From Flavobacteriales bacterium (GTDB taxonomy: Bacteria; Bacteroidota; Bacteroidia; Flavobacteriales_F; PHOS-HE28): a stretch of DNA of 64,000 nucleotides. Location: assembly GCA_016715995.1 (NCBI GenBank), contig JADJXF010000018.1:89819-153818 (forward strand). The letters are read 5' to 3'. A program made the position numbers and the translations under genes. Shown piece after piece: positions 3,530 through 47,100 of the stretch; the first letter of the stretch is position 1; each line of letters starts with the position of its first letter. The notes beneath the pieces were generated by a model. The model worked only from the letters and a program-made list of their open reading frames with translations, ran no database searches and was not told the origin of the DNA.

Positions 3530-3536
3530 AGAACAC

Positions 3537-7849: not shown

Positions 7850-7875
7850 CGGAGCCTGCTGCCTTTCTTTGCCCC

Positions 7876-10040: not shown

Positions 10041-11701
10041 ATGCAACGCCGCCTGATCGAATGCGTGCCCAATATCAGCGAGGGCCGCGACCGTGCCAAG
10101 ATCGACGCCATCGCCGCCGTGGTGGAGACCGTGGAAGGCGTTCGCCTGCTCGACGTGGACCCCGGCAAGGCGACGAATCGTACGGTGATCACCTTCGTGG
10201 GAGAGCCTGAGCCGGTGTGCGAGGCCGCCTTCCGCTTGATCCGTAAGGCGCAGGAGCTGATCGACATGCACGGCCATAAGGGCGAGCACCCGCGCTTCGG
10301 AGCCACGGATGTGTGTCCGCTGGTGCCCATCAGCGGCGTGAGCATGGAGGAGTGCGCCGCATATGCGAGGAAGCTCGGTCAGCGCGTGGGCAAGGAACTC
10401 GCCATACCGGTATACCTGTATGAAGCAGCGGCGAGCGAGGAGAAGCGCCGCAACCTGGCCAACAACCGGAGCGGTGAGTATGAAGGCCTGCCGAAGAAGC
10501 TGAGGGATGCTGCGTGGAAGCCCGACTTCGGCCCGGCGGAATTCAACGACAGCGTGGCGCGGAGCGGTGCCCTCGCCATCGGTGCGCGCAATTTCCTGGT
10601 AGCGTACAACGTGAACCTGAACACCACGAGCACGCGCCGCGCCAACGCCATCGCATTCGACATACGCGAGGCGGGCCGAAAGGTGAAGCAATCCGATGGC
10701 AGCGAGCTTCAAGTGCCAGGCAAACTGAAAAGCGTGAAGGGGATCGGCTGGTACATCGAGGAATACGGCATCGCTCAACTCTCCCTCAACCTTACAGACA
10801 TCACGATTACACCGGTACACATCGCCTTTGATGAAGCATGCACGAGCGCGAGCGAGCGTGGAATCCGCGTCACCGGCAGCGAACTGGTGGGCCTGATCCC
10901 GAAGCAGGCGTTGCTCGATGCAGCCGACTTCTACCAGCACGTCAAGAGCGCAGCCTCGGCATCCCCGAGCGCGAGAAGATCAAGATCGCCGTGAAGTCGC
11001 TCGGCTTGGATGACCTCGGCCCCTTCGACCCGCAGAAGAAAGTGATCGAATACATGCTGGAGGAGCCGGGCCAGGAGCGTCTGGTTCGAATGGACCTTAA
11101 GCGCTTCAGCGAGGAGACAGCCAGCGAGAGCCCGGCCCCGGGCGGTGGATCCGTGGCCGCATACGTGGGTGCGCTCGGAGTGGCGCTGGGCACGATGGTC
11201 GCCAACCTCAGCGCCCACAAGCGCGGGTGGGATGATCGCTGGAAGGAGTTCAGCGACTGGGCCGTGAAAGGCGAGAACCTCCGCCATGAGTTGCTCCTCT
11301 TGGTGGATGAGGATACGCGCGCCTTCGACCGTATCATGGCTGCCATGGGCCTGCCCAAGGGAAGCGACGAGGAGAAGAAAGCACGCAAGACGGCCATCAC
11401 GGAGGCCACGAAAGGCGCCATCAATACGCCGTTGCGCACCATGCAGGTGTGCGTGGAGAGCATGGGGCTGATGAAGGCGATGGCCGAACACGGCCTGCCC
11501 GCGAGCGTGAGCGACGCAGGCGTGGGCGCGTTGTGCGCACGCACCGGCGCGCTGGGGGCCTACCTCAACGTGCGCATCAACTGTGCAGGGCTCGACGATG
11601 CCGCCTTCAAGGACGACGTGCTGAAGAAAGCCGAAGCATTGAAGTCCGTGGCAGAGCAGCTGGAAGCCGAAGTGATGGCGCTGACCCTCGCCAAGGTGTA
11701 G
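10041..11701 (+). CDS. ftcD: bifunctional glutamate formimidoyltransferase / formimidoyltetrahydrofolate cyclodeaminase (FtcD-like), one frameshift near 10950
   Basis: N-domain MQRRLIECVPNISEGRD... (formiminotransferase) and C-domain ...APGGGSVAAYVGALGVALGTMVANLS... (cyclodeaminase) lie in two overlapping frames (ORFs 9975-10994 and 10838-11701). Adjacent to hutI. Confidence 0.8.
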
Positions 11702-30349: not shown

Positions 30350-30555
30350 TCAGCCCTTTGGTCCCGGAGCTGCGGTGAGGAGAGTCAGTGGCTTGCCTTC
30401 GTAGGCTTTGAAGTTCTGGGCTACGGTCGCCTCGGCGAAGTGGTCGCGGAGCGAAGACCGGTCACGACGCAGCGGCGACCGTAGTGGTTGAGCACCACAT
30501 CGCGGAAATAGTCCTAGCCTAAGCGCAAGGTGACCTCGCGCCGGGAAGTGCTCAT
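30350..30555 (-). pseudogene. HNH-endonuclease remnant (in-frame amber stop, 3' truncated)
   Basis: Minus-strand reading MSTSRREVTLRLG-[TAG]-DYFRDVVLNHYGRRCVVTGL... resembles the start of HNH_2-type restriction nucleases (Y..rC.vTG) but lacks the downstream AHI/N-H residues and contains a stop. Confidence 0.35.
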
Positions 30556-30623
30556 ATATGGCGCTATATGTGATGCGTACCTGATACTTCGAACCACCAC
30601 CTTACAAACTACATATGTGTGTC

Positions 30624-30631
30624 TATATTTG
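30624..30631 (+). promoter_or_regulatory. Bacteroidetes sigma-A -7 element (TAnnTTTG)
   Basis: TATATTTG in an AT-rich stretch 24 nt upstream of the ATG at 30655. Confidence 0.3.
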
Positions 30632-30654
30632 TCGACATATTCATCCAGAAGACC

Positions 30655-30880
30655 ATGAAAGAGAAGCGCGATCGGTTCGCCAAGGTGGCCGCCTCGAGAG
30701 TCCAGAAGGCGCTGGATGCGCTAGGAGAGCCTCTCGAAGTGCAGCAACAAGACCAACTACGAGTACACCGAGGCCGATATCCGGAAGATGTCGCGTGCGC
30801 TAAACGACAAGCTCAAGACCACCTTGGGTATGTTCCGCTCCGGGGCTGATTCCAAGGGTGCCAACACCTTCAAATTCTGA
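30655..30880 (+). CDS. small (~75 aa) hypothetical protein, first gene of the dcm operon (frameshift near 30725)
   Basis: MKEKRDRFAKVAASRVQKALDAL... continues after a 1-nt shift as ...SKCSNKTNYEYTEADIRKMSRALNDKLKTTLGMFRSGADSKGANTFKF. Confidence 0.45.
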
Positions 30881-30974
30881 TGATGCGCTGTCCAGGGTCG
30901 CATGTTGAAACATTCGCCGGAATTCCCATCTTACGGGACGGGTTTCTGCCGAATTTTCTGGCAGCCCCATTCCC

Positions 30975-32575
30975 ATGGCAAAGCCGCGTCAATACACGGC
31001 CCTCGACCTCTTTTCAGGTTGTGGGGGCTTCAGTCTCGGACTCCAACGCGCAGGCATCAAGGTGCTTGGTGCTGTCGATTTCAACAAAGAGGCCATCGAA
31101 ACCTACCGGGCGAACTTCCCGGAAGTGCCTTTCGTGAAGGAAGCGGACATGAAAACCATGAAACCCGCAGACCTCGCCAAAGCTATCCACGCCAATCACG
31201 TCGATGTGATTGTTGGTGGGCCACCTTGCCAAGGGTTCAGCATGGCGCGACAACGCGATGGAGCGAACCACGGGCAGCGACGTTTCGTGAAGGATGAGCG
31301 CCGCGAACTATACCAGGAATTCCTACGGTTCGTGGACCACTTCCAGCCGAAGGTGTTCGTAATCGAGAATGTCCTTGGCATCAAGAGCGCGGAAGGCGGC
31401 AAGTATTTCACCGCCGTCCAGCACGAAGCGCGGAATTTGGGCAAGGAAGATGGCAGACCGGGCTACCGTGTGCATGCGCAAGTGGAGCAGGCATGGGAAC
31501 TCGGTGTGCCTCAGAAGCGCAGACGCCAACTCATCATCGGTGTTCGGGCTGACCTACCAGGATACTTCCCAACGAAGCTCTCAACGCCGAAGCGGTCCAT
31601 GAAGGATATGACCCTTGGTGCTGCGATCATGGATCGTCCTGTGTTGGAAGGTGGGCAAGTCGAAGAGGAACGCGAGTACGATCGCGCCTCCGGGAAAAGG
31701 CCATCAAGCAATTCGGCCGCCACGCTGAGAAATACCTCTACAATGTACTTGAGGTTAAGAGGGCCAAGAAGCTTACTGGACATCGTGCACGGAAGCATAG
31801 CGACCGTGACTTGCGGGACTTTGCCAAGTTGAAGGAGGGACAGAGTTCCGCCAACGCCATGCGAGCTGGCATCAAGTTCGAATTCCCGTACAGCACAGAG
31901 AGCTTCAAGGACCGCTACACCCGGCAGGATCGGAAGGCACTCTGTAGCACTATCGTCGCACACTTGAGCAAGGATGGACTGATGTTCATCCACCCAACGC
32001 AGAACCGCTCGTTGACCCCGCGTGAAGCCGCACGGGTGCAGAGCTTCCCGGATTGGTTCCAGTTCCCGTTCTCACGTACACATCAGTTCAGGATGATCGG
32101 CAACGCCGTACCGCCGCTGGTTTCTGAAGCCGTAGGGAATGAGGTGGTGAACTTCATTGCTGGTCAAACCTTGATTAAACGAACTCGCATGAACCGCACG
32201 ATACCACAAGACCAAGAGGAAGCCGTGAACTGGCTGCTACCTGTCCTTGACCTATCTGCCAAGGAGTTGAGCCAAATGGAGAAGGCGGAATTCCTGCGCG
32301 CATGGCGTGCGGTTGCTTTCCTCTACCCTGGCTTGCACCCCGATGGTGCGTTGGATCATGGAAAGCGCATCGAGCAACGGAGGGAAGGACCGAGTTGGGT
32401 GATGATGATCGAGCCCAGACTTGTCACACCGTACTTCAGCCAAAGCGGATGGCCTGTTGTGTTGAAATCACTCGCTAATGAGGCGTGGCGGAGGGACGAT
32501 GCTGGTCTGCTTGCTGACGACGAGTTGTACTCGATAGATGCGCAGCATGCCGGTATGACACACGCAATGAACTAG
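30975..32575 (+). CDS. dcm: DNA (cytosine-5)-methyltransferase (frameshift in A-run at 31694-31698)
   Basis: Motif I DLFSGCGGFSLG, motif IV GGPPCQGFS, motif VI ENV, and C-terminal QNRSLTPREAARVQSFPDWFQF / GNAVPPLV. The two halves are ORFs 30975-31832 and 31811-32575. gggaaaagg lacks one A relative to the in-frame reading. Confidence 0.85.
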
Positions 32576-32579
32576 GCAC

Positions 32580-35247
32580 ATGCAGGCTCCTCATTGGCAA
32601 TTCGCATCCACTGGGGGCGGCACCGAGGATGGGGTTTCCAATCCCGACCTTGAGTATTTCGAAGGGATTAGAACTACTATCTCGCTCGCGAGATCCTTCA
32701 GAACGCCCTCGATGCGCGGCTTGATGCAACGAAGCCGGTCCGTGTGGACTTCACCTTGCTCGAAATGCCGAAGTCACAGTTCCCTGGCTTCGATGAGTTC
32801 GTTGATGTCTGGAAAGCTGCCAAAGCCCTTTGGCCACAAAGCGAGGAGAAGTGTCACCAATTTCTTGATGCTGGTCTGCGTTGCTTGGAGCAGCCCAAGC
32901 TTCGCGTGCTCAAGATTTCGGACCACAACACAGTTGGCCTGAATGGCGACGATGGCGATCGGAGTGGTGCTTGGTTCTCCTTGGTAAAGTCAGTTGGGTC
33001 CACTACCAAAACTGGAGGACAGGGTGGATCATTCGGTATCGGGAAAGGAGCCCCATTCGCGGCTTCGATGCTTCGCACTTGCTTCTACTCCACGGTCAAC
33101 GAGCGTGGTCAAAACGTCTTCCAAGGCGTGGCCAAGCTGGTCAGCCACAAGAAGGACGACGACGTGAGGCGCGGTGAGGGGTCCTATGGTTTGGCGATGC
33201 AGTCCTCCATACGAAACAGGGAGCAAATGGAGGAAGCCATGGTGCGTAAGCAGCGTGGCTTGGACATATACGTGATGGGATACAAGGTTCAGGACGACTG
33301 GCAGGAAAAGCTCATTCGGTCTGTCCTGCGGAACTTCTGGCTGGCAATTCGTGACCAGGAACTCGTGGTCGTCATTGATGGTCAGGAAATTTCTGAAACA
33401 ACCGTTGACGAACTTCTGGCCAAGTACTTTCTGAACGAACCTTTCAAAGACGCTACTCGTCCCGAAGGGAATCCGCTGGAGTACTTCAAGGCATACAAGA
33501 ACGGTACGCCGTTCCACAAGGAGCTGCCGATACTTGGTCCTGTCAGGTTCTATTTCAATCTGACCGAGGAACCCTTGAATTGGGTCGCGATGATCCGGAA
33601 GCACAAGATGGTCATCTACACTCGCACATTCCACTTCCTTCACCATACGCCGGGGTGTTCATTTGTGACAATGCCGCTGGCAATGCAGAACTGAGACGGA
33701 TGGAAACACCGGCCCATGATAACTGGGACCCGGCAAGGCATAAGGAAAAGGGGCAGGCGATCGAGGAAGAGATCAGAGGCTTCATACGAGAGTGCTTACG
33801 CGCCATGACCAAGTCTCAAGAGGGAGGAAAGGTTGAGATCCCAGGACTCCATCGATACCTCCCGTTTGAGCATGAGGATGACGACACACAAACAGGCGGA
33901 ACAGCCATGGAGTATTCCGGAAGACCAGTTGCCGGACCAGAGGAAACCGCCCGTGAATTGGGTGCGGCAGAAAGCATCAATGAGACCGTCACGATAAGCC
34001 CTTATCGAGTTACGGTCTTAAATGAACGCAAAGCTGGGTTTGAAGGTGAGGGCGCAGAAACAGGGGGAAAGAAGACCAAGAAGAAGCGGAAGCCGCATCG
34101 CGGTGGCGAAGGCGAAAACGATGCGCTACTGAAAGAGCACCTGCACACCCGTGCATTCTGTATCGGCCAGTCATCCGATGTTCTCATTTACCAGCTCGTA
34201 GTGCGGAGCGGCATTGACGGACTTTGCAGCCTGAAGGTGAATGCTGTTGGTGAAGAGGGTGGCGAGAAGGTGGTCTTGAGGACCGCAGTAGATCGCAGCG
34301 GAAATCAATACAAGGTCAATGGACACCGCATCTTGAACATTCCGATCAGCAGTTCATCGGACCTCCAACTCAGCTTGGAGGTGGAAGGTCTGGACGGCTT
34401 GCACTCAGCATTGACGGCTATGCGCTACAACAATAGAGACTATCCCCATCCGGTTCTTGGTGTTGGCGATGCCGTTGCTGGTCATTTCAGCGTGCGGTTA
34501 GCCGTCCGCGCAGGTACCAAGGAGATTCGCTTAGAGCCGGTCTACGACCTTGGCAATCGCACACCAACGCATCCTGGCATTGAAGGCGGGCAGGCTCAGT
34601 TCGCAACTCACATCTATTGCAAGGGCACCATGTTCCGTGAAGTGCGGAAGTCGACCAAGGCCGTAGCGGAAACTATTGTACTTCCAGCCAGTGCGCTTCG
34701 CGACAAGGTGGAAGTGGACTTCTTCGTATGTGCGAACGCTCCGATCGCAGCCTACACGAATTCCGACGCGCATTCCGACTTCGTGGGGCACTCGTTCCCA
34801 GTTGAGCGAGGCGTGATTCTGGCATACGGCGGGCAAGGCGTCTTCTATGCGAACAAGACTCCTGAGGAACTGAAGGCGATCTCGTCCTTCATGAACATCG
34901 ATCGCGACCCACGACCTCACGGGCCTATGTACAACGCCTACGATGGGGACAAGATCACCGTGATGCTGTCCTCGAACGACTACCAGCGCTATCAGATCGT
35001 CAAGAGGGATCCGTACATCGTTGAGATCCTGCACAGCGCGATCGTTCTGCCCGCTTTGATGCAAGCCATTGCCGTAGTCCAAGAGGAGCCGTCAGAGTTT
35101 GCTGAGCACAAGTGGTTCGACATTCTCAAAGGACTAGTCGAGGAAACCAAAGAGGAAGATCCGATGAAGATCGCGCAGAAAATCTTGGAGAACCCGCTCA
35201 ACCGTTCCTTCAATGCTGTGACCAGCATGATGGAAACAGCAGATTGA
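32580..35247 (+). CDS. large (~890 aa) protein with N-terminal GHKL/Bergerat-fold ATPase domain (sacsin/MutL-like) and uncharacterised C-terminal region (two homopolymer frameshifts)
   Basis: N-box LAREILQNALDA, G1-like ISDHNTVGLNGDD, G2 GGQGGSFGIGKGAPFAAS. Pieces are ORFs 32580-32942, 32744-33694 and 33580-35247. Shifts at agaac (32669-32673, one A short) and ttcc (about 33645, one C short). Starts 5 nt after the dcm stop. Confidence 0.7.
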
Positions 35248-35251
35248 TGGC

Positions 35252-35995
35252 ATGAGCAGCACGGAGCAACCCATCGCTCTCCTAGAGCAGAAGATCCTAT
35301 CGACACGCACAGTCGACAGGATGTATCGGCAACTCAAGAACCTTCAGGATCACTCACAATACCTAGCTGGGTCATACGTCGGCGAGCTAGAGTTTCCGAA
35401 AGGGGGTTCCGGTATTGCGGCCGTCGAGGACCTCAAACTTGTTCCTCCAGACTCCAAAGACCTGCAAGACTTAGCCAATACCAAGCTCATCTATCACGCC
35501 TTTCAGAAGCTCACTCCGGCACAGGCGTCTGACAAGAGGCTGTGGACCTACCTGACGCATGTGACTTTCTGGGACTACATGAGAAAGCGATGGCCAGTAG
35601 ATGAGGCGGACAAGCCCATCAACAGGATAAGTGATCGCTACTTTCTCACTACGACAAGCTTGGAGTCGCTGACTAGGAATGGCATCTCGCGCTTGTGGTG
35701 GTATGGCTATTTAACGCACGACGCGAGTCGCAGCAATCCATGGGAGTTGACGGAGACACTTCTGTCGCGCGCGGATCTTGTGGTTGGCATTACAGAGCGC
35801 GCTGTCGGCAGCAATCAAACCTTGCGTACTGCTGTACTGGAGTTTCTTGCTGACAACCCGGAGATCAGTCTAAGTGAAAAGCTCACCCGTGAACTTCTCA
35901 AGAAGCTGAATCTTGTTGGGGGTACTCGCAATCTGCCCTTCCTGGATGTCGCAGAGTTGAAGGTGCTCTTAGCGAGTATTACCCCAACCTCTTAG
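35252..35995 (+). CDS. hypothetical 247-aa protein, translationally coupled to the GHKL gene
   Basis: Starts 5 nt after the 35247 stop. Trp/Tyr-rich motifs (KRLWTYLTHVTFWDYMRKRW, RLWWYGYLTHD). No family recognised. Confidence 0.6.
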   Translation: MSSTEQPIALLEQKILSTRTVDRMYRQLKNLQDHSQYLAGSYVGELEFPKGGSGIAAVEDLKLVPPDSKDLQDLANTKLIYHAFQKLTPAQASDKRLWTYLTHVTFWDYMRKRWPVDEADKPINRISDRYFLTTTSLESLTRNGISRLWWYGYLTHDASRSNPWELTETLLSRADLVVGITERAVGSNQTLRTAVLEFLADNPEISLSEKLTRELLKKLNLVGGTRNLPFLDVAELKVLLASITPTS

Positions 35996-36234
35996 CCATC
36001 ACTACTTCTTGGTTCTTCAGTAGGCTCTGCATTTCGCGTTAGGGACAGCAGCGGAAAAGCCCGGAGCGTTCTTAGGCGAGGACTTGTAGCGAATGGCCCG
36101 ACGGCGCGTCTTCGAACCGGAATAGCCAAACCACCGGCATTCCCCGAAGACACCGCCCCACCACCTAGAACATTGCTGCCGTAGGGTGCTCCAGAAAGCA
36201 ATACTTCTAATAGCCTTTCCCAGTGCCTCTTGCC

Positions 36235-36807
36235 CTAGTAGATAAGTATGCAAGTGTCAGCACCCCTTTGGGCGAAGCCAAGCTTGGATGGCGGACAGGC
36301 ATTTGACCCAGCAATCTCAAGCGGCCCAAGAACAAGATTCACCCAATCTACGCTCGCAAAACCTGGAGCAGGATTATGGTTAACCCAGACTCCTTTAACC
36401 TTCAATAGATTCGCCTCGATCGTATTCATTATCACCCCAACTCGATCCGGAGGTAACGCCCAATCCATTGGCCCCCATTTGCGGCGAAACTCAATGCGCC
36501 ATTTAGGTCTTCGCGCTCTTTCATCCGGAATCTTGACTAACCTGGGAGTGGCAAGCCATGGGCGAATCAAGCGGCCTTCAAGTGAGGTGCTTCTCAGCCT
36601 TTCGATCTCACGACCATTCCCACGTTCCACTCTACCATCATCGCGTACCTGTGCGGTTGAGGACTTGGAGGAAGCCAATACATTCTGGGTCCTCTCCTGA
36701 CGAGTCCGCGTTGTGTGTGGGAAAGCCTGTAGATCATCTGCGTGACATGACAAAAATCGCTCGGGATGGAAAACGGTCACGAGGCCAAGTACGATTGTCT
36801 CCATCAC
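36235..36807 (-). CDS. hypothetical protein (weak call)
   Basis: 190-aa ORF with protein-like composition (...KWRIEFRRKWGPMDWALPPDRVGVIMNTIEANLLKVKGVWV...). The plus-strand alternative is S/P/L/R-rich. No motif recognised, Vsr motifs absent. Confidence 0.35.
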   Translation of the reverse strand: MMETIVLGLVTVFHPERFLSCHADDLQAFPHTTRTRQERTQNVLASSKSSTAQVRDDGRVERGNGREIERLRSTSLEGRLIRPWLATPRLVKIPDERARRPKWRIEFRRKWGPMDWALPPDRVGVIMNTIEANLLKVKGVWVNHNPAPGFASVDWVNLVLGPLEIAGSNACPPSKLGFAQRGADTCILIY

Positions 36808-36816
36808 TCAGGCTAG

Positions 36817-37818
36817 TTACTTCCTATGAATGAAGCGAACACCCAATGATACCAAGAATACGCTCGTTAGAAGAATGCCAAGAAACGCCTCGAGTGCGGC
36901 CATAACATCACCCCAAGTTGTCAATGGGACAATCGTCCCGCCTCCCATAGTCGCAAAGGAAATGAAGCTCAAAGCAATCCCATGAACCAGGCTGTAAGAT
37001 TCGATTGAACTCACACAAACACCGAGTATAGGATAAACGATGATGCCAAAAACCAAGATTACGCCAAGCATCCAAAGCAGGGTGAGTTGTGGTCGAACTC
37101 CATAACCCCACAGGTGTCGATGGACATTCCAAAGCAAGTTGGCAATCGATGATTCTGAGCGTGCTCGTTGGGCACGGTGGAGATTGCGCATTTCTCGCAG
37201 ATACCATCGGTGAGCCGCGAAGTAGTTTGACCGGGCTTCGGCATTCTTCCCTAAGACCCTGTATACACTTGCGGCCCTTTCATGCTGACAGATGCACTCT
37301 TCACCAATCGACCCAATATGTACGCCTTCCCAATTAGTCTGTTCATCCATACGACAACCATAGAAGAAAGCTCCCTCTAGGCTAGATCCTTCTAAATCGA
37401 CCCCGGACAGGTCAGAAAACTCAAAATGCCCACCTACTGCTTGTGTGGCGGTGAAGATTGATCGACAAAGAACTGCGTTCGTAAGCACAGCTCCATTCAG
37501 TCTTGCAGAGCGACAATTCGCAAACTCAAAATTTGCACCCACCAACACCGTGCGCTCTAAGTTCGCACCCTCAAGGTCCGCAAGTGGCAGTTGTGCCCCG
37601 GTCAAATCGAGATCTGATAAATCACGTCCCGCCAAAGTCGCTCCCTCAAGCCATAAATCGGAGGACCGAATCGCTGCATTCAGGGCGTCACGAACGCGAT
37701 GGTTCCCCTCCGCGACAAAGTGGAATACACAATATTCTGTACTGCCCGCAGCAATCTCCCGCTCGCAGTAGTCGCGAGGACGACCTGTGTGCAGATACTT
37801 ATGCTTACAGACGGCCAT
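36817..37818 (-). CDS. pentapeptide-repeat protein fused to a C-terminal 2-TM pore-like (ion-channel-like) domain
   Basis: N-terminal 4-Cys cluster (CKHKYLHTGRPRDYCEREIAAGSTEYCVFH). Tandem A(D/N)LxxA pentapeptides (ADLEGANLERTVLVGANFEFANCRSARLNGAVLTNAVL...). C-terminal two hydrophobic helices flanking SFATMGGGTIVPLTTWGD. Confidence 0.7.
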   Translation of the reverse strand: MAVCKHKYLHTGRPRDYCEREIAAGSTEYCVFHFVAEGNHRVRDALNAAIRSSDLWLEGATLAGRDLSDLDLTGAQLPLADLEGANLERTVLVGANFEFANCRSARLNGAVLTNAVLCRSIFTATQAVGGHFEFSDLSGVDLEGSSLEGAFFYGCRMDEQTNWEGVHIGSIGEECICQHERAASVYRVLGKNAEARSNYFAAHRWYLREMRNLHRAQRARSESSIANLLWNVHRHLWGYGVRPQLTLLWMLGVILVFGIIVYPILGVCVSSIESYSLVHGIALSFISFATMGGGTIVPLTTWGDVMAALEAFLGILLTSVFLVSLGVRFIHRK

Positions 37819-38011
37819 CTATTCGAAAGAAAGAGTACTACAGCTAGTTCATTGGGTGTGCCGGCAATTCGCAGCGTGTCATTCACTGTTCACATATTCC
37901 TCCGATACTGCCCCCCTACCTCGTCCTTCGGCTGCCGCTCAGGACTCGCCGCCGTCAGCTGCCCCAGTGAGCAATACTATCGCCTCCATCAGCACCATTT
38001 TATCACGTTGC

Positions 38012-38344
38012 CTATGCCTTGGCGGCAGTTCTCCGCTCCATAGACTTCCGGCGCACTGGCCTGGCCAGCGGCTGGGGCATCTTGGGCAATTTCCCGGCGT
38101 ACAGCGTCTCGAAGCGGAAACACATCTCCCAGTCGTCCCAGTATACATCCACGTTGCGGTGCAACTTGAACTGCCGGAAGCGCAGCACATCCAGGTACTG
38201 GCTGTTCATGGGGTTCTGGCCCGCCGCGCTCAGGAACGGGTGGAAGTCGATCTCGCTCACATGCCCATCGGTGAACTGGAAGCGGATGGCATAATCACCC
38301 TTGTAGGTGGCCTTCTTGATCCGGACGTTATCTGCGATCCTCAT
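38012..38344 (-). CDS. DUF2442-family protein
   Basis: MRIADNVRIKKATYKGDYAIRFQFTDGHVSEIDFHPFL matches DUF2442. Confidence 0.65.
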   Translation of the reverse strand: MRIADNVRIKKATYKGDYAIRFQFTDGHVSEIDFHPFLSAAGQNPMNSQYLDVLRFRQFKLHRNVDVYWDDWEMCFRFETLYAGKLPKMPQPLARPVRRKSMERRTAAKA

Positions 38345-38646
38345 TTCACACGTCGGGTGATGCGCTCGGGCTTGATGCGCTTGTGTTCTACATAGAAGGC
38401 GGTCCATTTGGCAACGATGTCGCCTTTCATTGCCCGCACGAAGGACTCTGCTTCCCGTTGTTCCTTCTCGTTCAGCATAGCAGCTCCGCGCTTGGCACGC
38501 CAGCGCAATTCCACGAGCTTGCCTTCCACGATGATGAGCATGATGATGCCCTCGCGGTCGCCATGCTGCACATGGAGGTGCATAGGGTCATGGTCGTCGC
38601 TGTAGAACAGGAAGATGAGGCCGAAGTAATCGTACAGCTTGGGCAT
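38341..38646 (-). CDS. DUF4160-family protein
   Basis: MPKLYDYFGLIFLFYSDDHDPMHLHVQHGD matches the DUF4160 N-terminus. Stop overlaps the DUF2442 ATG (ATGA). Confidence 0.7.
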   Translation of the reverse strand: MPKLYDYFGLIFLFYSDDHDPMHLHVQHGDREGIIMLIIVEGKLVELRWRAKRGAAMLNEKEQREAESFVRAMKGDIVAKWTAFYVEHKRIKPERITRRVK

Positions 38647-38667
38647 TGGCCCAAAGGTAGCGACCGG

Positions 38668-39143
38668 TATGGCCTTACATGTTCCTTCTATACTGCCCAC
38701 CTACTTCAAACATCGCAGCAGTAAGCTGTCCAAGGCTACAGTACTTGGTCGCCTCCATCAGCACTGCGAACATGTTCTCGTTCTTGATCGCCGCTTCTTG
38801 CAATTTGCGCAACGCCGCCTTGGCTTCTTCGGCGTAGGCCTGCTGCACGTTCTCCACCGTCCTGATCTGCGCCTCCTTCTCTTCCTCCGTAGCGCGAATG
38901 ACCTCCTTCGGCAGGATCGTCGGTGAGCCTTTGCTGCTGAGGAAGGTGTTCACGCCGATGATCGGGTATTCACCGGTGTGCTTCAGCGTTTCGTAGTAAA
39001 GGCTTTCCTCCTGGATGCGGCTGCGCTGGTACATGGTCTCCATGGCGCCGAGCACACCGCCGCGTTCGGTGATGCGGTCGAACTCGGTGAGCACGGCCTC
39101 TTCCACCAGGTCGGTGAGCTCTTCGATGATGAAGGAGCCTTCG
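38668..39143. repeat. direct repeat copy 1 (icmF 3' end, ~470 bp, diverged)
   Basis: DNA alignment to 43666-44143 with scattered substitutions. Homology begins at ggctccttcatcatcgaagagctcacc. Confidence 0.7.
38675..39143 (-). pseudogene. diverged partial copy of the 3' end (last ~155 codons) of icmF
   Basis: Encodes ...[28 protein letters not shown]...[14 protein letters not shown], about 90% identical to the C-terminus of the intact gene at 43666-44143. Same stop context (ttacat(g/a)ttcc). No upstream gene body. Confidence 0.7.
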
Positions 39144-39157
39144 CGGGTTCACACCGA

Positions 39158-39880
39158 TTACACAGCCACAACTACTTCCCCAGTTTCGTTGATCACCAAC
39201 TGAGCCCCGGAATGTTCCCGAACCAACGACTGCCCATTGTAGAACGGCTCGATCGTTCTGAAGCGGTGTTGATACAATTCCTTGCCCTGACTGTCAATGT
39301 GGAACCAGCCCTTCTTGTCCAAAGCCGTTGCAATTCCCTTATGATAAGGCCCCAGTTCAAGGTAGCGGCCATCATTAACCGGCTGACCATCGGGGTCAAT
39401 GTGCATGAACAGTCCGTCCATGGTCTTTACACATGCAACGCCGTCTCGAAAGTCTCCGGCATACCGGAATTTATCCGAGTAGGCCGAAGTTCCATCGATT
39501 TGAATGTGATGATAGCTGCCATCGCTCGCCCTCACCGGACAACGGCCCTCTTGAAAGTTCCCACACCATGCGAACGACTGCGAACCCACCCGGCGACCTA
39601 GTGGGTCGATGTGGAACCAGTCGTCTCCAACCCACACTGCTGCTCGGTCGTTGTAATAGCCGAACGCTCGGTCATACCGTTCCGGATAAACTGGTTGGCC
39701 GTGTATATCGATGTGATACCAGCCCTCGTTACCTAGCACTGGGGCCAAGCCCGGTGCATGGAACTTCAGAACGCGACGGAAACGACCTTGCCACAGCGGC
39801 TGATCATGAAACAGGAAGCCCAGACCATCCTTTGCGACCCGGATCGTCCTCCACTCCATGGTTCTATTCTCATCAAGCAT
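39158..39880 (-). CDS. WG-repeat (KWG) protein
   Basis: Repeated G(W/Y)xHIDxxGxxV units (GWYHIDIHGQPV, DWFHIDPLGRRV, GSYHHIQIDGTS, GLFMHIDPDGQPV, GWFHIDSQGKEL). Confidence 0.7.
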   Translation of the reverse strand: MLDENRTMEWRTIRVAKDGLGFLFHDQPLWQGRFRRVLKFHAPGLAPVLGNEGWYHIDIHGQPVYPERYDRAFGYYNDRAAVWVGDDWFHIDPLGRRVGSQSFAWCGNFQEGRCPVRASDGSYHHIQIDGTSAYSDKFRYAGDFRDGVACVKTMDGLFMHIDPDGQPVNDGRYLELGPYHKGIATALDKKGWFHIDSQGKELYQHRFRTIEPFYNGQSLVREHSGAQLVINETGEVVVAV

Positions 39881-39930
39881 GTCAGGCCGGGTTCGTGATG
39901 ATCAATGACGTTCGTTCCTGAACCGTTCAA

Positions 39931-41376
39931 TTACAGATGACACATCCGGATCTTCAAGGCATTCACCTCCTCTTGAGATAGCCCGCAGTTCAACAGGTAC
40001 TGTTCCACGCCGCCCTCTTGCTCAATGATGTCCAACACTATTTGCAAGTTGTAGCCGTACGTATCCGACTCGCTAGCTAAGTAATCCGTCTGCACAGTTT
40101 CGTGGTCGGCTCCGGCGACTAGATGAAGCAATGTGACGATGATGCCCGTACGGTCCTTTCCTGCATGGCAGTGTATCAAAGCCCCCTTGCCGTTTGGCAC
40201 TTCAGCAAGTGCGCGAACTACAACAGAAATACTCTCACGACAAGCAAGCGCAAAGAAGCGATAGGCCACCTGCTGGTTACCCCCCCGCTGGTACTCCGCT
40301 GTTTTGAACCAATCCGGTTGACTCCATGGATCCAATGGAGCATGCACGTATCGGCCGATGGGCCATTTCTCCCGTGGATGGGGATGCTCTTCCAACTCCC
40401 GAGGCGCTCGAAGGTCAACGACCGTATGCACATCATGATCAGCCACCAATGTCGCAAGCATGTCCTCATTCATCAGCGCAGGTGCAGAAGAGCGCAAGAG
40501 ATTTGACCAACGGACCTTGGGGTTGTAGGTGCCGACGGCCCGCAGGTTCCAATATCGATCTCGCTCATAGATCTGTTCACAGGTCGCGCGAACATCGGCT
40601 AGCTTCTCGAAAGCGAGATCATCCAGTGTCTCGTACAACAGATCCAGCAATTCACGCTTCTTCCCATTCATTTCCGGCAGAAACATGGAGCCGCTCAACC
40701 GGTACAACCTTTCGCGGAATGTCCCATCAGTTATGTTCACCAAGAGATTTCTTGGAAGGAACTGGAAACGGTCCTGGGCGATTTTCATATTGAGCAACTG
40801 GACCACACAGTGCAGAGCGATCTGATAGAAGTAGAGGGCTCGATGGCCATCGCTTCTTCGATGGAACGTCGATGCATTGTCGAACTCGTAGATGAACTTG
40901 TCCACTAGGTCCTGGACCGTGCTCGGTCGGTATCCGATACCCAAGACGCCTTCAAGTCTACCAAGCAGGTGGCCCGACCTATCGATCAGAATGGCCTGCG
41001 GGAGAAGGTCACGAGGAATAGCAGACCCTGTCAAATCGCGCGAGAAGGACTCCATGCTCCGATGTATGGAGAACTCAGTCTTCAACCGCATGCCTTGAAA
41101 GAACGCCACCACCTTGTTCCGCATTTCAACCCGCATTACACGATCGGGTTTAGGCGATGCCTTCACCAAGGCGTTCGTCAGCGCTTCGCTACTGAACCTT
41201 TCATCGACGATCAGCGCAACATCGATATCAGAGTTCGGGGTTGCTTCCTGCCGAGCAACGGATCCATAGAGCACGGCAGCATCGATCCCAACAACTCCTT
41301 CGAGTATCGGCCGGAAACCATCAATGATCTGGTGATGCATCATGTTGTTGGTTTCCTCATGTTGCAGGTCATACAC
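39931..41376 (-). CDS. nucleotidyltransferase (Pol-beta/MNT-like) fused to C-terminal Cys-based tyrosine phosphatase domain
   Basis: N-terminus LYGSVARQEATPNSDIDVALIV (GS...DxD NTase motif). C-terminus IHCHAGKDRTGI (CX5R P-loop, Tyr_phosphatase_3-like). Confidence 0.7.
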   Translation of the reverse strand: MYDLQHEETNNMMHHQIIDGFRPILEGVVGIDAAVLYGSVARQEATPNSDIDVALIVDERFSSEALTNALVKASPKPDRVMRVEMRNKVVAFFQGMRLKTEFSIHRSMESFSRDLTGSAIPRDLLPQAILIDRSGHLLGRLEGVLGIGYRPSTVQDLVDKFIYEFDNASTFHRRSDGHRALYFYQIALHCVVQLLNMKIAQDRFQFLPRNLLVNITDGTFRERLYRLSGSMFLPEMNGKKRELLDLLYETLDDLAFEKLADVRATCEQIYERDRYWNLRAVGTYNPKVRWSNLLRSSAPALMNEDMLATLVADHDVHTVVDLRAPRELEEHPHPREKWPIGRYVHAPLDPWSQPDWFKTAEYQRGGNQQVAYRFFALACRESISVVVRALAEVPNGKGALIHCHAGKDRTGIIVTLLHLVAGADHETVQTDYLASESDTYGYNLQIVLDIIEQEGGVEQYLLNCGLSQEEVNALKIRMCHL

Positions 41377-41490
41377 AATGGCCTTGTCTTGTAATCCATC
41401 ACCAAGCTGCGGTAATTGGCTCCGTGCAGCGTCTCTTCAAGGCCGATCTCGTTCACATTCCCAAAATCACCTAGCGACTGCCTTTGTTCA

Positions 41491-42366
41491 TCAGGCGCAC
41501 AACACGGCGAGATCTTTACCCGTGGCCGATACCCACAACTCCTTGCCGAGGAAAGGGCAATCATAGTCCTCTGGCACTGCGTGCCCAACTACTGGCTTCA
41601 ATGGCTCGATGTTCTCCAGAAGAACAGGGCGGCCATCATGCCTCCTGAATTCATCTGCTGCGTCCCGTGCAGCTTCAACAATGCCGTTCCAATGCTCAAT
41701 GGCCTCTGGCGACGACTTGAAACTGAGTTCCTCGATCTCTTTGAAGTGTGCCCACAGGTGGTGACCCTTCACGCGGTCAACACCCAGGTCTGCTGCGAGG
41801 CGAATGATACCGGGTAGTTCGTGCATGTTGTTCTGCATGAACGTGAGTTGAAGGGTAACGCGGCAGTAATAGCCTGATCTCTTGAAGTGGTCATCCCTGA
41901 CCTTGACAAAGCGCCTGACGTTCTCCAACGCTTGCACGAACGTCAAACCCTTCATAATAGACTCCGCCGTTTCCTTGGTTGCACCATTCCATGAGATCTT
42001 CACGTCCGAGGTAACAGGAACGATGAGCGCCGCCCACTCCTCCACTGACTTCTTTGGGAAGGTGCCGTTGGTCGTTAGGTTGATCTTCATCCCCAACTCC
42101 GCTGCGAGCGCGAAGACTTCATCCATCTGACGGTAGAGCAGCGGTTCACCCATTGTCGAAGGGATGATCTCGCGGACACCCATGGCCTTCGCTTGCTCCA
42201 TGATGTCCCGAACCATGGTGAAGGGCATCCGCCTGCGTTTGACACCCGTGCGTTCGTAGAGTCGTTGGATGAAATCGCTGTGCTCACTGTGCTCTTCGCA
42301 CATGGTGCAACTCAGGTTGCAATCCTCTGGATTCGTGTCCAGTGTTATGCGCCACAACTTGCTCAT
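41491..42366 (-). CDS. radical SAM enzyme (small, no SPASM domain)
   Basis: CNLSCTMCEE (CxxxCxxC), SAM motifs STMGEPLL and NLTTNG. ATG overlaps the GT4 stop (ATGA). Confidence 0.75.
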   Translation of the reverse strand: MSKLWRITLDTNPEDCNLSCTMCEEHSEHSDFIQRLYERTGVKRRRMPFTMVRDIMEQAKAMGVREIIPSTMGEPLLYRQMDEVFALAAELGMKINLTTNGTFPKKSVEEWAALIVPVTSDVKISWNGATKETAESIMKGLTFVQALENVRRFVKVRDDHFKRSGYYCRVTLQLTFMQNNMHELPGIIRLAADLGVDRVKGHHLWAHFKEIEELSFKSSPEAIEHWNGIVEAARDAADEFRRHDGRPVLLENIEPLKPVVGHAVPEDYDCPFLGKELWVSATGKDLAVLCA

Positions 42367-43643
42367 GACCGGGCGATCAGTTGCGCATACACGTTCTCCA
42401 GGATCGCACAATGATCCAAGATGGAGGGAACTACGCCAGCTGTCGAGAACAGATAGCCTCGTCGTCCGAGCCGTTCCATTTCCTTGGGATGCATACAGGC
42501 CCAACGCATCTGCTCCCGAAGGTCTTCGATGGACCTATGCCTGAAGAGCAGCCCGTTGACCTGGTGTTGCACATATTCCGCCATGCCACCGGCATCAGCC
42601 GTGATCACAGGAATGCCGCATGCTTGTGCTTCGTGGATGACCAAGGGCGAGTTCTCCATCCAGATGGACGGTACCACGATGCAATCGACCCGGTTGAACA
42701 CTTCGTTGGCGAGGTTCTGGTTCACATATGCACCCATGAAGTGGATGCCCTTTCGAGAAGCACCCATGGCCTGAAGAGCGGCAGTGCTCTGCTGGTCCTT
42801 CGCGCCCCAGACGTAAAGTTCGGCAGCATCACCAAGTCCGTCAAACGCTTCGATGAGCTTGTTCACTCCTTTCGCCGGGATGTGCGTGCCGATATATCCA
42901 AATCGGAACTTGGGATAGGCATCGCGCTTCGTGGTCGCAACCAAGTAATCCGTGGGGAACCCGTAGTCGAGGTACATGACCTTGCTTGCTTCAACGCCGA
43001 ACTCATCAATGAAGCGTGTGCGCAAATACTTGGATGGCGCGATGAAGAGATCCACCGCAGACGCCAATCTGTGCATCTCATCCATTCTTGTCGCGACCCA
43101 TTTTGACCAGTAACCCTCTTCATCGTTTATCCTGCCATCGACACCAGACAATGCCGAAGAGTAGCAGGTCGTTGCGCACTTCCGATCCTCCTGCCCGTCG
43201 CACAGTTCATGCAATCGGCCTTGTCCGAAGTTCCGTTGAAGGAATTGGCCCCGCGGGCACATCAACCAGAAGTCGTGCAGCGTGAACACGATCGGAATTC
43301 CCGCCCTCTCCAGCACATCCACGATGCCTGTGGACAAGTGATTGAGGTGGCCGATATGTGCCACATCCGGCTTAAAGGATCGAACCAACTCTGCGAACCG
43401 AGCATCGAGTTCGGCATGGCGATAACCATCTTTCGCTCTGGGCATGTTCACCAGATGAACCGCAAGTCCCGGATGCACTTCAGTAATCCGGATGGTCATG
43501 TCTGGCGCGAAGGGGTTCTCCTCGCGTGAGAAGACAACCACCTCATGGCGATTGGAGAGTTCTTCGCAAATGGACTGGCTGTAAACCTCGGATCCTGCGC
43601 TGTACAGCGGCGGATAACCGTGTATGACCTTCAAGATCCGCAT
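42363..43643 (-). CDS. GT4-family glycosyltransferase
   Basis: GT-B fold, C-terminal EAQACGIPVITADAGGMAEYV (EX7E-like) motif. Confidence 0.8.
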   Translation of the reverse strand: MRILKVIHGYPPLYSAGSEVYSQSICEELSNRHEVVVFSREENPFAPDMTIRITEVHPGLAVHLVNMPRAKDGYRHAELDARFAELVRSFKPDVAHIGHLNHLSTGIVDVLERAGIPIVFTLHDFWLMCPRGQFLQRNFGQGRLHELCDGQEDRKCATTCYSSALSGVDGRINDEEGYWSKWVATRMDEMHRLASAVDLFIAPSKYLRTRFIDEFGVEASKVMYLDYGFPTDYLVATTKRDAYPKFRFGYIGTHIPAKGVNKLIEAFDGLGDAAELYVWGAKDQQSTAALQAMGASRKGIHFMGAYVNQNLANEVFNRVDCIVVPSIWMENSPLVIHEAQACGIPVITADAGGMAEYVQHQVNGLLFRHRSIEDLREQMRWACMHPKEMERLGRRGYLFSTAGVVPSILDHCAILENVYAQLIARS

Positions 43644-43665
43644 GTTCGCGCCGACCTCGAAGAGC

Positions 43666-44143
43666 TTACATATTCCTTCTGTACTGCCCACCTACCTCAA
43701 ACATCGCCGCCGTCAGCTGCCCTAGGCTGCAGTACTTCGTCGCCTCCATCAGCACGGCGAACATGTTCTCGTTCTTGATCGCCGCCTGTTGCAAATTCTT
43801 GATGGCGGTCGCCGCTTCATCGCTGTAGGCCTCACGCAGGTTCTCCACCGTCGCGATCTGGGCTTCCTTCTCCTCTTCCGTGGCACGGATCACCTCCTTG
43901 GGCAGGACAGTAGGTGAGCCCTTGCTGCTGAGGAAGGTGTTCACCCCGATGATCGGGTATTCGCCGGTATGCTTCAGCGTTTCATAGTAGAGGCTTTCCT
44001 CCTGGATGCGGCTGCGCTGGTACATGGTCTCCATGGCGCCGAGCACGCCGCCGCGTTCGGTGATGCGGTCGAACTCGGTGAGCACGGCCTCTTCCACCAG
44101 GTCGGTGAGCTCCTCGATGATGAAGGAGCCTTGCAGCGGGTTC
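43666..44143. repeat. direct repeat copy 2 (in-gene 3' end of icmF)
   Basis: See copy 1. Confidence 0.7.
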
Positions 44144-47100
44144 TCGTTCTTGGCCAAGCCGAGCTCCTTGTTGATGATGAGCTGGATGGCCATGGCGCGG
44201 CGCACGCTTTCCTCGGTGGGCGTGGTGATAGCCTCGTCGTAGGCGTTCGTGTGGAGGCTGTTCGTATTGTCGTAGATGGCGTAGAGCGCCTGCAACGTGG
44301 TGCGGATGTCGTTGAAGTCGATCTCCTGCGCGTGGAGGCTGCGGCCGCTGGTCTGGATGTGGTACTTGAGCATCTGGCTGCGCTCGTCGGCGCCGTAGCG
44401 GTGCTTGAGCGCCTTGGCCCAGAGGCGGCGCGCCACGCGGCCCATCACGGCGTATTCGGGGTCCATGCCGTTGCTGAAGAAGAAGCTCAGGTTGGGCGCG
44501 AAGGCGTTGATGTCCATGCCCCGGCTGGAGGTAGTACTCCACGTAGGTGAAGCCGTTGGCCAGCGTGAACGCGAGCTGCGAAATGGGGTTGGCGCCGGCC
44601 TCCGCGATGTGGTAGCCGCTGATGCTGACGCTGTAGAAGTTGCGGACCTTCTGCTCGATGAAGTACTGCTGCACATCCCCCATCAAACGCAGCGCGAACT
44701 CAGTGCTGAAGATGCAGGTGTTCTGTGCCTGGTCTTCCTTCAGGATGTCGGCCTGGACGGTGCCGCGGACCTGGGCGAGGGTGTCGGCTTTGATCTTGGC
44801 GTAGACGTCGGGCGGGAGGACCTGATCGCCGGTGATGCCGAGCAGAAGCAAGCCTAGACCGTCATTCCCTTTCGGAACCTCACCATGATACTTCGGGCGC
44901 TGGCTGCTGGCTGTTGGCTGCTGGCCTTTGGCTGCTGGCTGCTGGCCGCTGGCTACTGGCTGCTGGCTCGCTTGCGGATTGGAGCCAGTAGCCAGTGGCC
45001 TGTGGCCAGCAGCTTCCCAACGCTCCTTGACCTTCTTTTCAACCTCTGCTTCCAATCCGTTCTCCCGGATGTATTTCTCGCAGTTCTGATCGATCGCCGC
45101 GTTCATGAAGAAGCCCAACAACATGGGCGCCGGACCGTTGATGGTCATGCTGACGCTTGTGGTGGGCGAGGTGAGGTCGAAGCCGCTGTAGAGTTTCTTG
45201 GCATCGTCGAGGCAGCAGATGCTTACGCCGCTGTTGCCCACCTTGCCGTAGATGTCCGGACGACGACCGGGATCGTGGCCATAGAGCGTGACGCTGTCGA
45301 ACGCAGTGCTGAGGCGCTTGGCGGGCAGGCCTTGGCTCACGTAGTGGAAGCGCTTGTTGGTGCGCTCCGGTCCACCCTCGCCGGCGAACATGCGCGCGGG
45401 ATCCTCGCCGGTGCGTTTGAAGGGATAGATGCCTGCGGTGTAAGGGAAGAAGCCGGGCGTGTTCTCCTGCATGGCCCAGCGCACCTTGTCGCCCCAACTG
45501 CGGAACTTCGGCAGCGCCACCTTCGGGATCTTCAGGTGACTGAGGCTCTCGGTGTGGTTGGGCACCTTGATCTCCTTGCCGCGCACGAGGTAGGTGTAGA
45601 ACTCGCCGCCGTACTTCTCCTCTTCGGCCTTCCAGCCGCTGATCATGGACCAGAGGTGCGGATCCAGGTCCTTGCGTAGCTCGTTGAACTTGGTGATCAG
45701 TGTTTGGACTTCAGGTGTTGAGGTGAATGGTGAATGGGAGCTGGTGACTGGCGAACCCGCATCCACGGCATTTCTCCATTCGCCATTCACCAACGACCAT
45801 TCACCCGCAAGCATATCGGGTCCTCCGAAGGTGATGACAGCAGAGTGCAGCCCATACAGTTGATCAGCAATGTTCGCCTGGGCATCCACCCGGGAATCGT
45901 AGCGGCGATTGTTCTCGCTGATCTCGCTCAAGTATCTGCTCTTCGCAGGAGGGATGATCCACACCTTCTCGCTCATCTCGTCGTGCGCGTGGAAAGTGCT
46001 GTGGAAGTCGACGCCCGTCTTGGACTTGATGGTCTCCATCAACCGCACATACAGGTTGTTGGTGCCGGGATCGTTGAACTGGCTGGCGATGGTGCCAACA
46101 ACAGGCAGCTTGTCATCGTCCGCATCCCAGAGCTGGTGATTGCGCTTGTACTGCTTCTTCACATCGCGCACCGCGTCTTGCGCGCCGCGCTTGTCGAACT
46201 TGTTGATCGCCACCACATCGGCGAAGTCAAGCATGTCGATCTTCTCCAATTGCGTGGCCGCGCCGAACTCCGGCGTCATGATGTAGAGCGAAACGTCGCT
46301 GTGATCGAGGATCTCCGTATCGCTCTGGCCGATGCCGCTCGTCTCGAGGATGATCAGGTCGAAGCCCGCGGCCTTCAGAATCTCCACGGCTTCCTTCACG
46401 TGCTTGCTCAGCGCGAGGTTGCTCTGGCGCGTGGCGAGTGAACGCATGTATACGCGTTCGCCGCGGATGCTGTTCATGCGGATGCGGTCGCCCAGCAGCG
46501 CGCCGCCGGTCTTGCGCTTGCTCGGGTCCACGCTGATGACGCCGACCGTTAAACCTTGTCCTTCCGGGCCTGACCCGGAATGATCGAGGATGAAACGGCG
46601 GATCAACTCGTCCACCATGCTGCTCTTGCCAGCACCGCCAGTGCCTGTGATGCCCAGCACCGGCGCCTTGCTCGCTTCGGCCTTCTTATGGATCTCGTCG
46701 GCGATGGTGGCGAAGACCTCCGGATGGTTCTCCGCCGTGCTGATCAGCTTGGCGATGGCCGGCCAGTTCTGCGGGCTCAGCTTCTTCGCCTCGCCGTTCA
46801 GCTTGTCGCTCAGGTCGAAGTCGGCCTTCTCGAGCATGTCGTTGATCATGCCCTGTAGGCCCATCGCACGACCATCATCCGGGTGGTACAAGCGCGTGAT
46901 CCCGTACGCGTGCAGCTCCTTGATCTCCTCGGGAAGGATCGTCCCTCCTCCCCCGCCGAAGATCTTGATGTGCCCTGCGCCCTTTTCCTTCAGCAGGTCG
47001 TGCATGTACTTGAAGTACTCGTTGTGCCCGCCTTGGTAGCTCGTCATGGCGATGGCGTGCGCATCCTCCTGGATCGCGGTGTTCACCACGTCCTCCACAC

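Follow-up and report, generated by a model that had tools for sequence, protein, structure and literature searches.

A Frame-Broken PDC-M33 Locus with Cytosine Methyltransferase and Small-Protein Partners in a Flavobacteriales Bacterium: A Candidate Restriction–Modification-like Defence Cassette

Introduction

PDC-M33 is one of 145 candidate defence systems that are described by their authors as untested and that were identified from genes lying inside BREX, DISARM, and type I restriction–modification (R-M) loci (Payne et al., 10.1101/2024.01.29.577857). It comprises only three profiles and has no proposed mechanism. In this work, we compare with it an operon of five genes, S, Dcm, A, B, and C, found in a stretch of 64,000 nucleotides from a Flavobacteriales bacterium (assembly GCA_016715995.1, contig JADJXF010000018.1, positions 89,819–153,818), hereafter the window, whose first letter is position 1. 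The operon had been noticed earlier by a model that read the sequence without database searches (the original prediction).

A broader class of related loci was predicted in 2008, in which MORC and paraMORC ATPases with GHKL and S5 domains stand with Dcm and Vsr in R-M-like operons of patchy, lateral distribution (Iyer, Abhiman, Aravind, PMC2292703). About 70% of these operons carry a superfamily II (SFII) helicase and a recognisable nuclease, and paraMORC1 is described with an extension C-terminal to S5 and occasional HNH neighbours (PMC2292703).

Three further groups of systems have features in common with the operon. In GHKL-Shedu (VcSduA/paraMORC3) and in the eukaryotic proteins MORC3, MORC2, and SMCHD1, an N-terminal GHKL ATPase is joined to a clamp-like middle domain, and the GHKL and clamp parts are proposed to control action on DNA. 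Type II R-M systems may contain a C5 methylase, and BREX, DISARM, and MADS combine a methyltransferase as presumed self-marker with several ATPase or unknown proteins. The BREX methylase is an N6 enzyme, and to our knowledge no DNA-cleaving effector of BREX is known.

Results and Discussion

Anatomy of the Operon

We read the operon by comparing the three-frame translation of positions 30,600–36,000 with intact orthologous operons (tblastn and DNA alignment). Five genes on the plus strand were found (Table 1), which corrects the four of the original prediction and bears out that the genes are co-directional. The third of the four had been described as a GHKL-ATPase protein of ~890 aa; the GHKL assignment stands at the level of the predicted fold (see below), while the single protein resolves into A and B. 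In intact relatives, A (~620 aa) and B (~275 aa) are always separate genes that overlap by ~10–20 nt in different frames, and they read as one open reading frame (ORF) in the window because, after a 1-nt deletion near 34393, the last part of A is read in the same frame as B. The 13 codons with which A properly ends (RLALSIDGYALQQ and the stop) persist in another frame and are 92% identical to those of the ortholog.

The predicted 247-aa ORF at the end of the operon is intact. The gaps of at most 5 nt that had been noted hold for Dcm/A and B/C (4 nt each) and for the overlapping A/B; S and Dcm are 94 nt apart. The Bacteroidota-type TAnnTTTG box predicted ahead of the operon is present and conserved: the counterpart of TATATTTG in two orthologous operons, L001 and L002, is ATATATTTGT at the same offset, the remaining spacer having diverged. 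Across the window as a whole, the bare motif occurs no more often than expected by chance (6 matches observed against 7.3 expected).

Table 1. Positions of the operon genes, the promoter box, the low-GC island, and the copies of the icmF 3' end in the window.
Feature	Position	Strand	Remarks
-7 promoter box TATATTTG, Bacteroidota type	30624..30631	+	24 nt before the ATG of S
Gene S	30655..30880	+	74 aa after correction; frame broken by an extra G near 30724
Dcm (C5 cytosine methyltransferase)	30975..32575	+	533 aa corrected; 1-nt deletion near 31683 (GATC[T]GCGC)
Gene A (PDC-M33A)	32580..34436	+	~619 aa corrected; three 1-nt deletions and a TAG stop
Gene B (PDC-M33B)	34420..35247	+	275 aa; intact; overlaps the end of A by 17 nt
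Gene C (PDC-M33C, DUF6339)	35252..35995	+	247 aa; intact
Low-GC island	30400..43700	.	composition profiles and repeated icmF 3' end copies
icmF 3' end, most degenerate copy	36,140-36,225 (approximate)	.	~65%, estimated by eye
icmF 3' end, short copy	37,910-38,010		~80% over ~100 nt, estimated by eye from alignment
icmF 3' end, duplicate of the last ~430 nt	38,675-39,106		82% identity
icmF 3' end, real gene end	43,669-44,100		at 43.7 kb

Genes A, B, and C Match PDC-M33

After frame correction, A matched the PADLOC profile PDC-M33A with E = 1.6e-130 (residues 4–602 on positions 3–612 of 627). B, adjacent to A, matched PDC-M33B with E = 8.5e-53 (positions 1–283 of 289), and C, adjacent to B, matched PDC-M33C (PDLC04586) with E = 5.7e-56. 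The three proteins matched no other PADLOC system, and the matches are near full-length, with gene order and strand as in PDC-M33. The statement that the composition of the operon matches no nameable defence system is thus wrong, A–B–C being exactly PDC-M33A/B/C. A named system matching every component, which the original prediction had listed as a finding that would speak against it, was found by half: in PADLOC, PDC-M33 profiles exist for three of the five genes but for neither the methylase nor S. The window differs from the catalogued system in its A gene, whose frame is broken and which appears joined to B in one reading frame; PADLOC excludes pseudogenes, and A does not count as an intact gene as assembled. 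Judged by these profile matches, the locus is a frame-broken member of the catalogued PDC-M33, accompanied by its usual partners Dcm and S.

Identification with type II R-M, DISARM, Druantia, Mza, BREX, or MADS was rejected in each case. Only Dcm matches the DISARM profile DrmMII (E = 3.6e-78) and the DruM profile, both more weakly than the generic methyltransferase profile MTase_II. The cassette has no PglZ, BrxC, DrmA, DrmB, DrmC, or Mad-type genes, and MADS, as an 8-gene system with an N6 methylase, is unrelated.

Predicted Fold of Protein A

The two GHKL peptides quoted in the original prediction, LAREILQNALDA and GGQGGSFGIGKGAPFAAS, are encoded where they had been placed (32681–32716 and 33014–33067, respectively). 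Failure of such motifs at profile thresholds had been named as an outcome that would count against the prediction. The GHKL profiles of Pfam and NCBIfam (HATPase_c, HATPase_c_3, and others) gave nothing for A at E <= 0.1, and a profile of 25 sequences compared with all PDB sequences yielded no meaningful match; the thresholds failed in all three collections, and the GHKL assignment is supported by the predicted fold only.

The fold was taken from an AlphaFold2 model of an intact ortholog (P0002), 73% identical to the window protein. The model is confident at residues 1–413 and 521–622, between which lies a disordered Lys/Arg/Gly-rich linker (residues 414–520), and the last 100 residues are predicted to form a beta-sandwich. 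Its best structural matches are MORC3 and SMCHD1, and the fold is of the MORC3/SMCHD1/MutL type: a Bergerat fold and an S5 transducer with the N-box (ExxxNxxD), G1 (DxxxG), and G2 (GxxGxG) motifs. Across 25 diverse homologs, E38, N42, D45, D115-N-T-x-G120, and G150-S-F-G-I-G-K-G157 are invariant, with G120, G150, G153, G155, and G157 among the invariant glycines. At the fold level, A is therefore a putative MORC/MutL-class GHKL+S5 ATPase.

The N-terminal GHKL ATPase and the clamp-like middle domain are shared with GHKL-Shedu and with eukaryotic MORC3, MORC2, and SMCHD1. Protein A differs from them in having no DUF4263/PD-(D/E)xK nuclease domain, CW zinc finger, coiled coil, or SMC hinge, its C-terminus being the small beta-sandwich.

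Proteins Dcm, S, B, and C

The corrected Dcm protein matched PF00145 (E = 1e-65), TIGR00675 (E = 4e-59), and PADLOC MTase_II (E = 5e-91), and all catalytic motifs (FSGCGG, GGPPCQGFS, ENV, QKRRR, GNAVPP) are present, in agreement with the first assignment of this gene as a dcm C5-methyltransferase. By these motifs, Dcm is a standard C5 cytosine methyltransferase; it carries a C-terminal extension of ~135 aa that is common only to its closest orthologs. The S proteins form a conserved family of 71–78 aa with the consensus KRxRFxRLA...LGNCxNRSNYDYTEE..KIF, for which no match was found in Pfam, NCBIfam, PADLOC, or PHROGs. PHROGs likewise gave no match for A, B, or C.

All B homologs are unfused, unnamed proteins of 270–290 aa. 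B has the conspicuous N-terminal motif N-x-R-x-YPHPVLG-x-x-DD, and over the whole protein only P9, P11, R73, and F126 are invariant. No relative of B was found in Pfam or by a profile search of PDB sequences. Protein C, which had been taken as having no recognisable domain, belongs to DUF6339 (PF19866, E = 6e-58). It is an all-alpha protein with a larger set of invariant residues, D94, R96, W98, H103, R129, R147, W149, W150, E182, and R183. The C profile gave no meaningful match among all PDB sequences, its model has no nuclease-like fold neighbour, and a Foldseek comparison with viral structures gave only E > 0.7. A literature search for DUF6339 or PDC-M33 returned no paper mentioning either.

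A relationship between B and C suggested by hhalign (96%) was rejected as an artefact, since one C homolog (P0200) bears the tail of B at its N-terminus; hhalign of B against A gave nothing. P0200, from a Bacteroidota metagenome-assembled genome (MAG), is a DUF6339 protein of 306 aa whose N-terminus contains the last ~60 residues of B, and may be either a B–C fusion or a gene with a mis-called start after a break in B.

Conservation and Linkage of the Cassette

A profile search found relatives of A in at least 271 GTDB species representatives, from phyla that include Bacteroidota, Patescibacteria, Proteobacteria, Planctomycetota, Verrucomicrobiota, Acidobacteriota, Deinococcota, Bacillota, and Thermotogota. 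In an exhaustive search, the family comprised 1,954, 4,244, and 6,482 clusters (50% identity) at E <= 1e-30, 1e-10, and 1e-3, respectively.

Gene neighbourhoods were compared at 84 loci, which come from many phyla. Unless a contig end intervenes, A, B, and C lie side by side; B is linked to A in 79 loci, C in 75, and Dcm also in 75, while S homologs adjoin A or Dcm in 55. Gene order varies: D-S-A-B-C is found in 33 loci (D denoting Dcm), D-A-B-C in 10, and S-D-A-B-C, the type of the window, in 5; S-A-B-C followed by an inverted D also occurs. Dcm accordingly has three alternative places in the cassette. Conservation of the neighbourhood in other genomes, a check proposed with the original prediction, is thereby established across phyla.

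Similarity co-varies strongly between A and B (rho = 0.84) and between A and C (0.70), and less between A and Dcm (0.45). Methylase size varies from 320 to 580 aa, and some close pairs of A are accompanied by unrelated methylases. The weaker co-variation and the unrelated methylases of close A pairs indicate that the methylase is usually co-inherited and sometimes swapped. What is new here is the nearly constant linkage of this PADLOC candidate to a C5 methylase, frequently joined by Vsr and a small conserved protein. The widespread cassette, two of whose three core proteins have no recognised fold relative or domain, also reaches dairy Lactococcus plasmids and a gut prophage.

The flanks were then compared with those of described systems. 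Vsr is the commonest extra neighbour (31 of the 84 loci). The linkage of a GHKL+S5 ATPase with a cytosine methylase and Vsr is that of the MORC/paraMORC operons, as is the patchy lateral distribution (PMC2292703); the window itself has Dcm and no Vsr. Protein A also has an extension beyond S5, and three loci (L001–L003) have HNH neighbours, as described for paraMORC1 (PMC2292703). The differences are that B and DUF6339 partners are not described for these operons (PMC2292703) and that neither the SFII helicase nor the nuclease recurs in the cassette. When 506 flanking ORFs from the 84 loci were clustered, no helicase or nuclease family was recurrent, HNH_2 being found in 4 loci only. In the window, Pfam and PADLOC scans found no linked helicase or nuclease, as the original prediction had stated. 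The locus is within the broad class of MORC/paraMORC R-M-like operons, without their typical helicase and nuclease.

With type II R-M systems that use a C5 methylase, the cassette shares the Dcm-type methylase, often Vsr, carriage on mobile elements, and a methylase of variable position and identity next to constant partner genes. It differs in having no recognisable restriction endonuclease (no such profile in Pfam, NCBIfam, or PADLOC matched S, A, B, or C), the partner being a three-protein module predicted to be ATP-dependent.

A Candidate Methylation-Gated Defence Cassette

On balance, we slightly favour reading S-Dcm-A-B-C as a methylation-gated, R-M-like defence cassette. Its methylation would probably label host DNA, and DNA without that label would be its target. 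In this model, Dcm would methylate a short motif on host DNA and so provide the self mark. Protein A would dimerise on ATP binding, as expected of a putative MORC/MutL-class ATPase, and form a complex with B, whose gene would be translationally coupled to it, and with C; the three genes are co-inherited. The A–B–C complex would then engage DNA that has no methyl mark and inactivate it. In the third of loci where Vsr is present, it would repair the T:G mismatches caused by the methylase. We guess that S may be a small regulator.

Vsr corrects T:G mismatches arising from Dcm methylation, and E. coli MutL stimulates Vsr. The frequent presence of Vsr at these loci can accordingly be read in another way, namely that the cassette is a repair accessory in which a MutL-like A, with B and C, helps Vsr to fix the mismatches generated by Dcm. 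An analogy between MutL–Vsr and the GHKL operons was also drawn by Iyer et al. (PMC2292703). We consider this explanation very improbable. Vsr is missing from 53 of the 84 loci and from the window, no MutS-like partner is found, and the closest folds to A are MORC3 and SMCHD1, not MutL. The patchy phyletic spread, carriage on plasmids and a prophage, and an A–B–C set on plasmid pS127 that stands beside Abi and R-M genes without any Dcm also speak against it.

The settings of the cassette in other genomes are those of defence and mobile DNA. On the Lactococcus plasmid pS127 (106,588–110,213), it lies between an AlwI-family restriction endonuclease and AbiGI/AbiGII; in locus L004, it is beside AbiEii and HipA; in the Clostridium innocuum prophage NatCom_9291 (1,907–8,274), S-A-B-C and Dcm lie just inside the integrase. 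The isolate Altibacter sp. HG106 has an intact ortholog (NZ_JAQQTD010000001.1, within 57,238–79,097). In total, 28 plasmid records carry A. Type II R-M systems act as addiction modules, and mobile carriage together with the tight co-inheritance of the methylase with A–B–C would equally suit a selfish addiction module that kills post-segregationally upon loss of methylation, phage defence being a by-product. Sequence data cannot separate this explanation from defence, and it likewise needs an effector; we regard it as quite unlikely.

The reading as a defence cassette also recovers part of the original proposal of a candidate R-M-like or defence module, which is in agreement with the predicted fold of A, the conserved neighbourhood, and the defence-island, plasmid, and prophage settings; the number of genes and the absence of a named match had to be revised.

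Two kinds of effector may be considered for the methylation-gated cassette. One would be an unrecognised catalytic activity in B or C, of which C is the better candidate because of its invariant Asp, His, Glu, and Arg residues. The other would be ATP-driven clamping or compaction of DNA, as by eukaryotic MORCs. There is also a bolder proposal, which we put forward tentatively and consider rather unlikely: that the cassette is a new class of methylation-gated immunity, in which a MORC-like clamp with B and C silences or traps unmethylated invading DNA without a conventional nuclease or helicase, or that DUF6339 is a new DNA-targeting enzyme. If true, the silencing clamp would be a prokaryotic counterpart of silencing by eukaryotic MORC and SMCHD1. 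The defence hypothesis, should it hold, would be relevant to the mode of action of MORC-type ATPases on DNA and to a bacterial origin of eukaryotic MORC silencing.

Several observations weigh against the defence cassette model. The family of PDC-M33 candidates is untested. Comparison with Pfam, NCBIfam, PADLOC, PDB, and known folds revealed no effector domain, whether nuclease, helicase, or other, in the five proteins, and the presence of only four invariant residues in B argues against B as an enzyme. The GHKL motifs of A fail the Pfam, NCBIfam, and PDB profiles, and the fold comes from the model of an ortholog, not of the window protein. A–B–C occurs without linked Dcm on pS127 and in two Deinococcus loci, L064, with full 10-kb flanks on both sides, and L065, cut ~3.5 kb downstream; therefore, the methylase is not strictly obligatory in cis. 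Finally, three of the five genes of the window copy are broken as assembled. The family is an attractive experimental target, to which the window copy adds little, being one more instance, broken or mis-assembled.

Frame Breaks: Decay or Assembly Error

The original prediction counted three homopolymer frameshifts; we found five 1-nt insertions or deletions (indels) and one TAG stop, not all of them in homopolymers. In addition to the lesions of S and Dcm (Table 1), A has lost a G from GGGG at 32666 and one base near each of 33640 and 34393. Its stop, TAC>TAG at 32669–71, replaces a conserved Tyr inside the conserved EGDYNYYLAREILQNALD block. Since S, Dcm, and A are all frame-broken, the copy is nonfunctional as assembled. 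The evidence as to whether the breaks are real decay or errors of the consensus leaves the odds about even.

Single-base breaks of the same kind, in short runs, are present in three housekeeping genes elsewhere in the window. The trmD gene (minus strand) is split near 2,330, within ~2,300–2,370; the formiminotransferase-cyclodeaminase gene (plus strand) is split near 10,920, within ~10,915–10,940, with positions 1–111 of the Pfam FTCD profile on one ORF and 108–145 on the next; and an icmF-like gene (minus strand) carries an extra C near 44,525, within ~44,520–44,530. The trmD gene is normally essential, and a frameshift in it is hard to credit as real; therefore, the assembly consensus has indel errors like those of the operon. 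The organism itself may then have an intact, working cassette, an explanation that concerns only the state of this copy and to which we give an even chance. It is favoured by the conservation of corrected A, which retains all 50 columns with >=95% conservation and 41 of the 43 with 85–95%; its misses are fewer than those of the median family member, and constraint thus does not look relaxed. The G deletion and the TAG, 3 nt apart, also resemble one local mis-call more than two independent mutations. Assembly error would also suit the locus-tag series IPM46, which presumably belongs to long-read MAGs from activated sludge.

The distribution of the lesions points the other way. There are 5 indels in the 5.3 kb of the operon and 3 in ~50 kb of flank, a ~19-fold excess (Poisson P = 2e-5), and B, C, and the other 7.7 kb of the low-GC island have no breaks. 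Homopolymer density was rejected as the cause of the cluster, the homopolymer content of the operon being equal to that of the flanks, and no shared sequence motif, as might be left by methylation-linked basecalling errors, was seen at the eight indel sites. An exact look-up of B, C, and the 515-aa ORF of the window in a contig index returned no record.

The alternative, no more and no less probable, is that the copy is a decaying pseudogene cluster, an old, costly, or autoimmune defence cassette inactivated after transfer. The lesions are confined to S, Dcm, and A, and the operon is the outermost islet and borders the att-like icmF 3' copy with the heaviest degradation (see below), a position that would make it the oldest. 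A relative from another metagenome, L085, 91% identical, retains only the 3' 425 nt of gene C; this truncated relic means that the cassette lineage does decay. Several other genomes, among them an Illumina isolate assembly (L013), also have A or C in split form. Against decay are the conserved residues, which show no excess of substitutions, the absence of larger deletions, and the indel errors demonstrable in essential genes of the same assembly.

In L085 (JGI 3300006172, contig Ga0075018_10081394), the C remnant at 119–543 is joined to unrelated DNA, which is followed by a SnoaL gene. Among the other loci, A is split in L013, L050, L055, L070, L077, and L084, C in L043 and L084, and B in L029. 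The splits may reflect frequent inactivation of the cassette or, again, errors of assembly; some of the MAGs with split genes we take to be long-read assemblies.

Arrival in the Genome and Neighbouring Islets

According to composition profiles, GC is 0.61–0.64 up to ~30,250 and 0.52–0.57 from ~30,500, in agreement with the predicted drop at ~30300, and it stays low until ~43.7 kb, where the low-GC DNA meets the 3' end of the large minus-strand icmF-like gene. Four copies of this 3' end are present (Table 1), and their degradation increases with distance from the real gene end. Such progressively degraded copies suggest that small low-GC islets were inserted one after another at a single att-like site, the operon being the outermost islet in the string. 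We propose that the most degenerate copy is an att-like scar bounding the operon islet on the right. The GC drop and the icmF 3' copies indicate that the cassette arrived by horizontal transfer. No integrase was noticed among the large ORFs scanned in the 13-kb island, in which no dedicated integrase search was made.

Upstream of the orthologous operon of L001, an HNH_2 nuclease is encoded. A tblastn search of the window with the HNH proteins of L001 and the Vsr of L004 found no HNH or Vsr remnant at E < 1e-3. Positions 30,380–30,560 (minus strand) read FRDVVLNHYGRRCVVTGL, in which 18 aa are 44% identical to the core of the HNH_2 protein of L001 (E = 0.016, for a target of 800 nt); this may be a relic nuclease fragment, and the match is too weak to call.

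The islet at 39,161–43,691 (minus strand) encodes a GT4 glycosyltransferase, whose weak GT4-conflict match (E = 3e-8) is below those of general glycosyltransferase families, a radical SAM protein with a weak pVip-like match, a WG-repeat protein, and a 481-aa fusion of a nucleotidyltransferase and a Tyr-phosphatase. These genes may form a further conflict-type set, for which PADLOC gave no matching system. Two smaller islets, both on the minus strand, encode a pentapeptide-repeat/ion-channel fusion (36,820–37,818) and, at 38,015–38,700, a DUF2442 protein next to a small ORF that by eye looks DUF4160-like.

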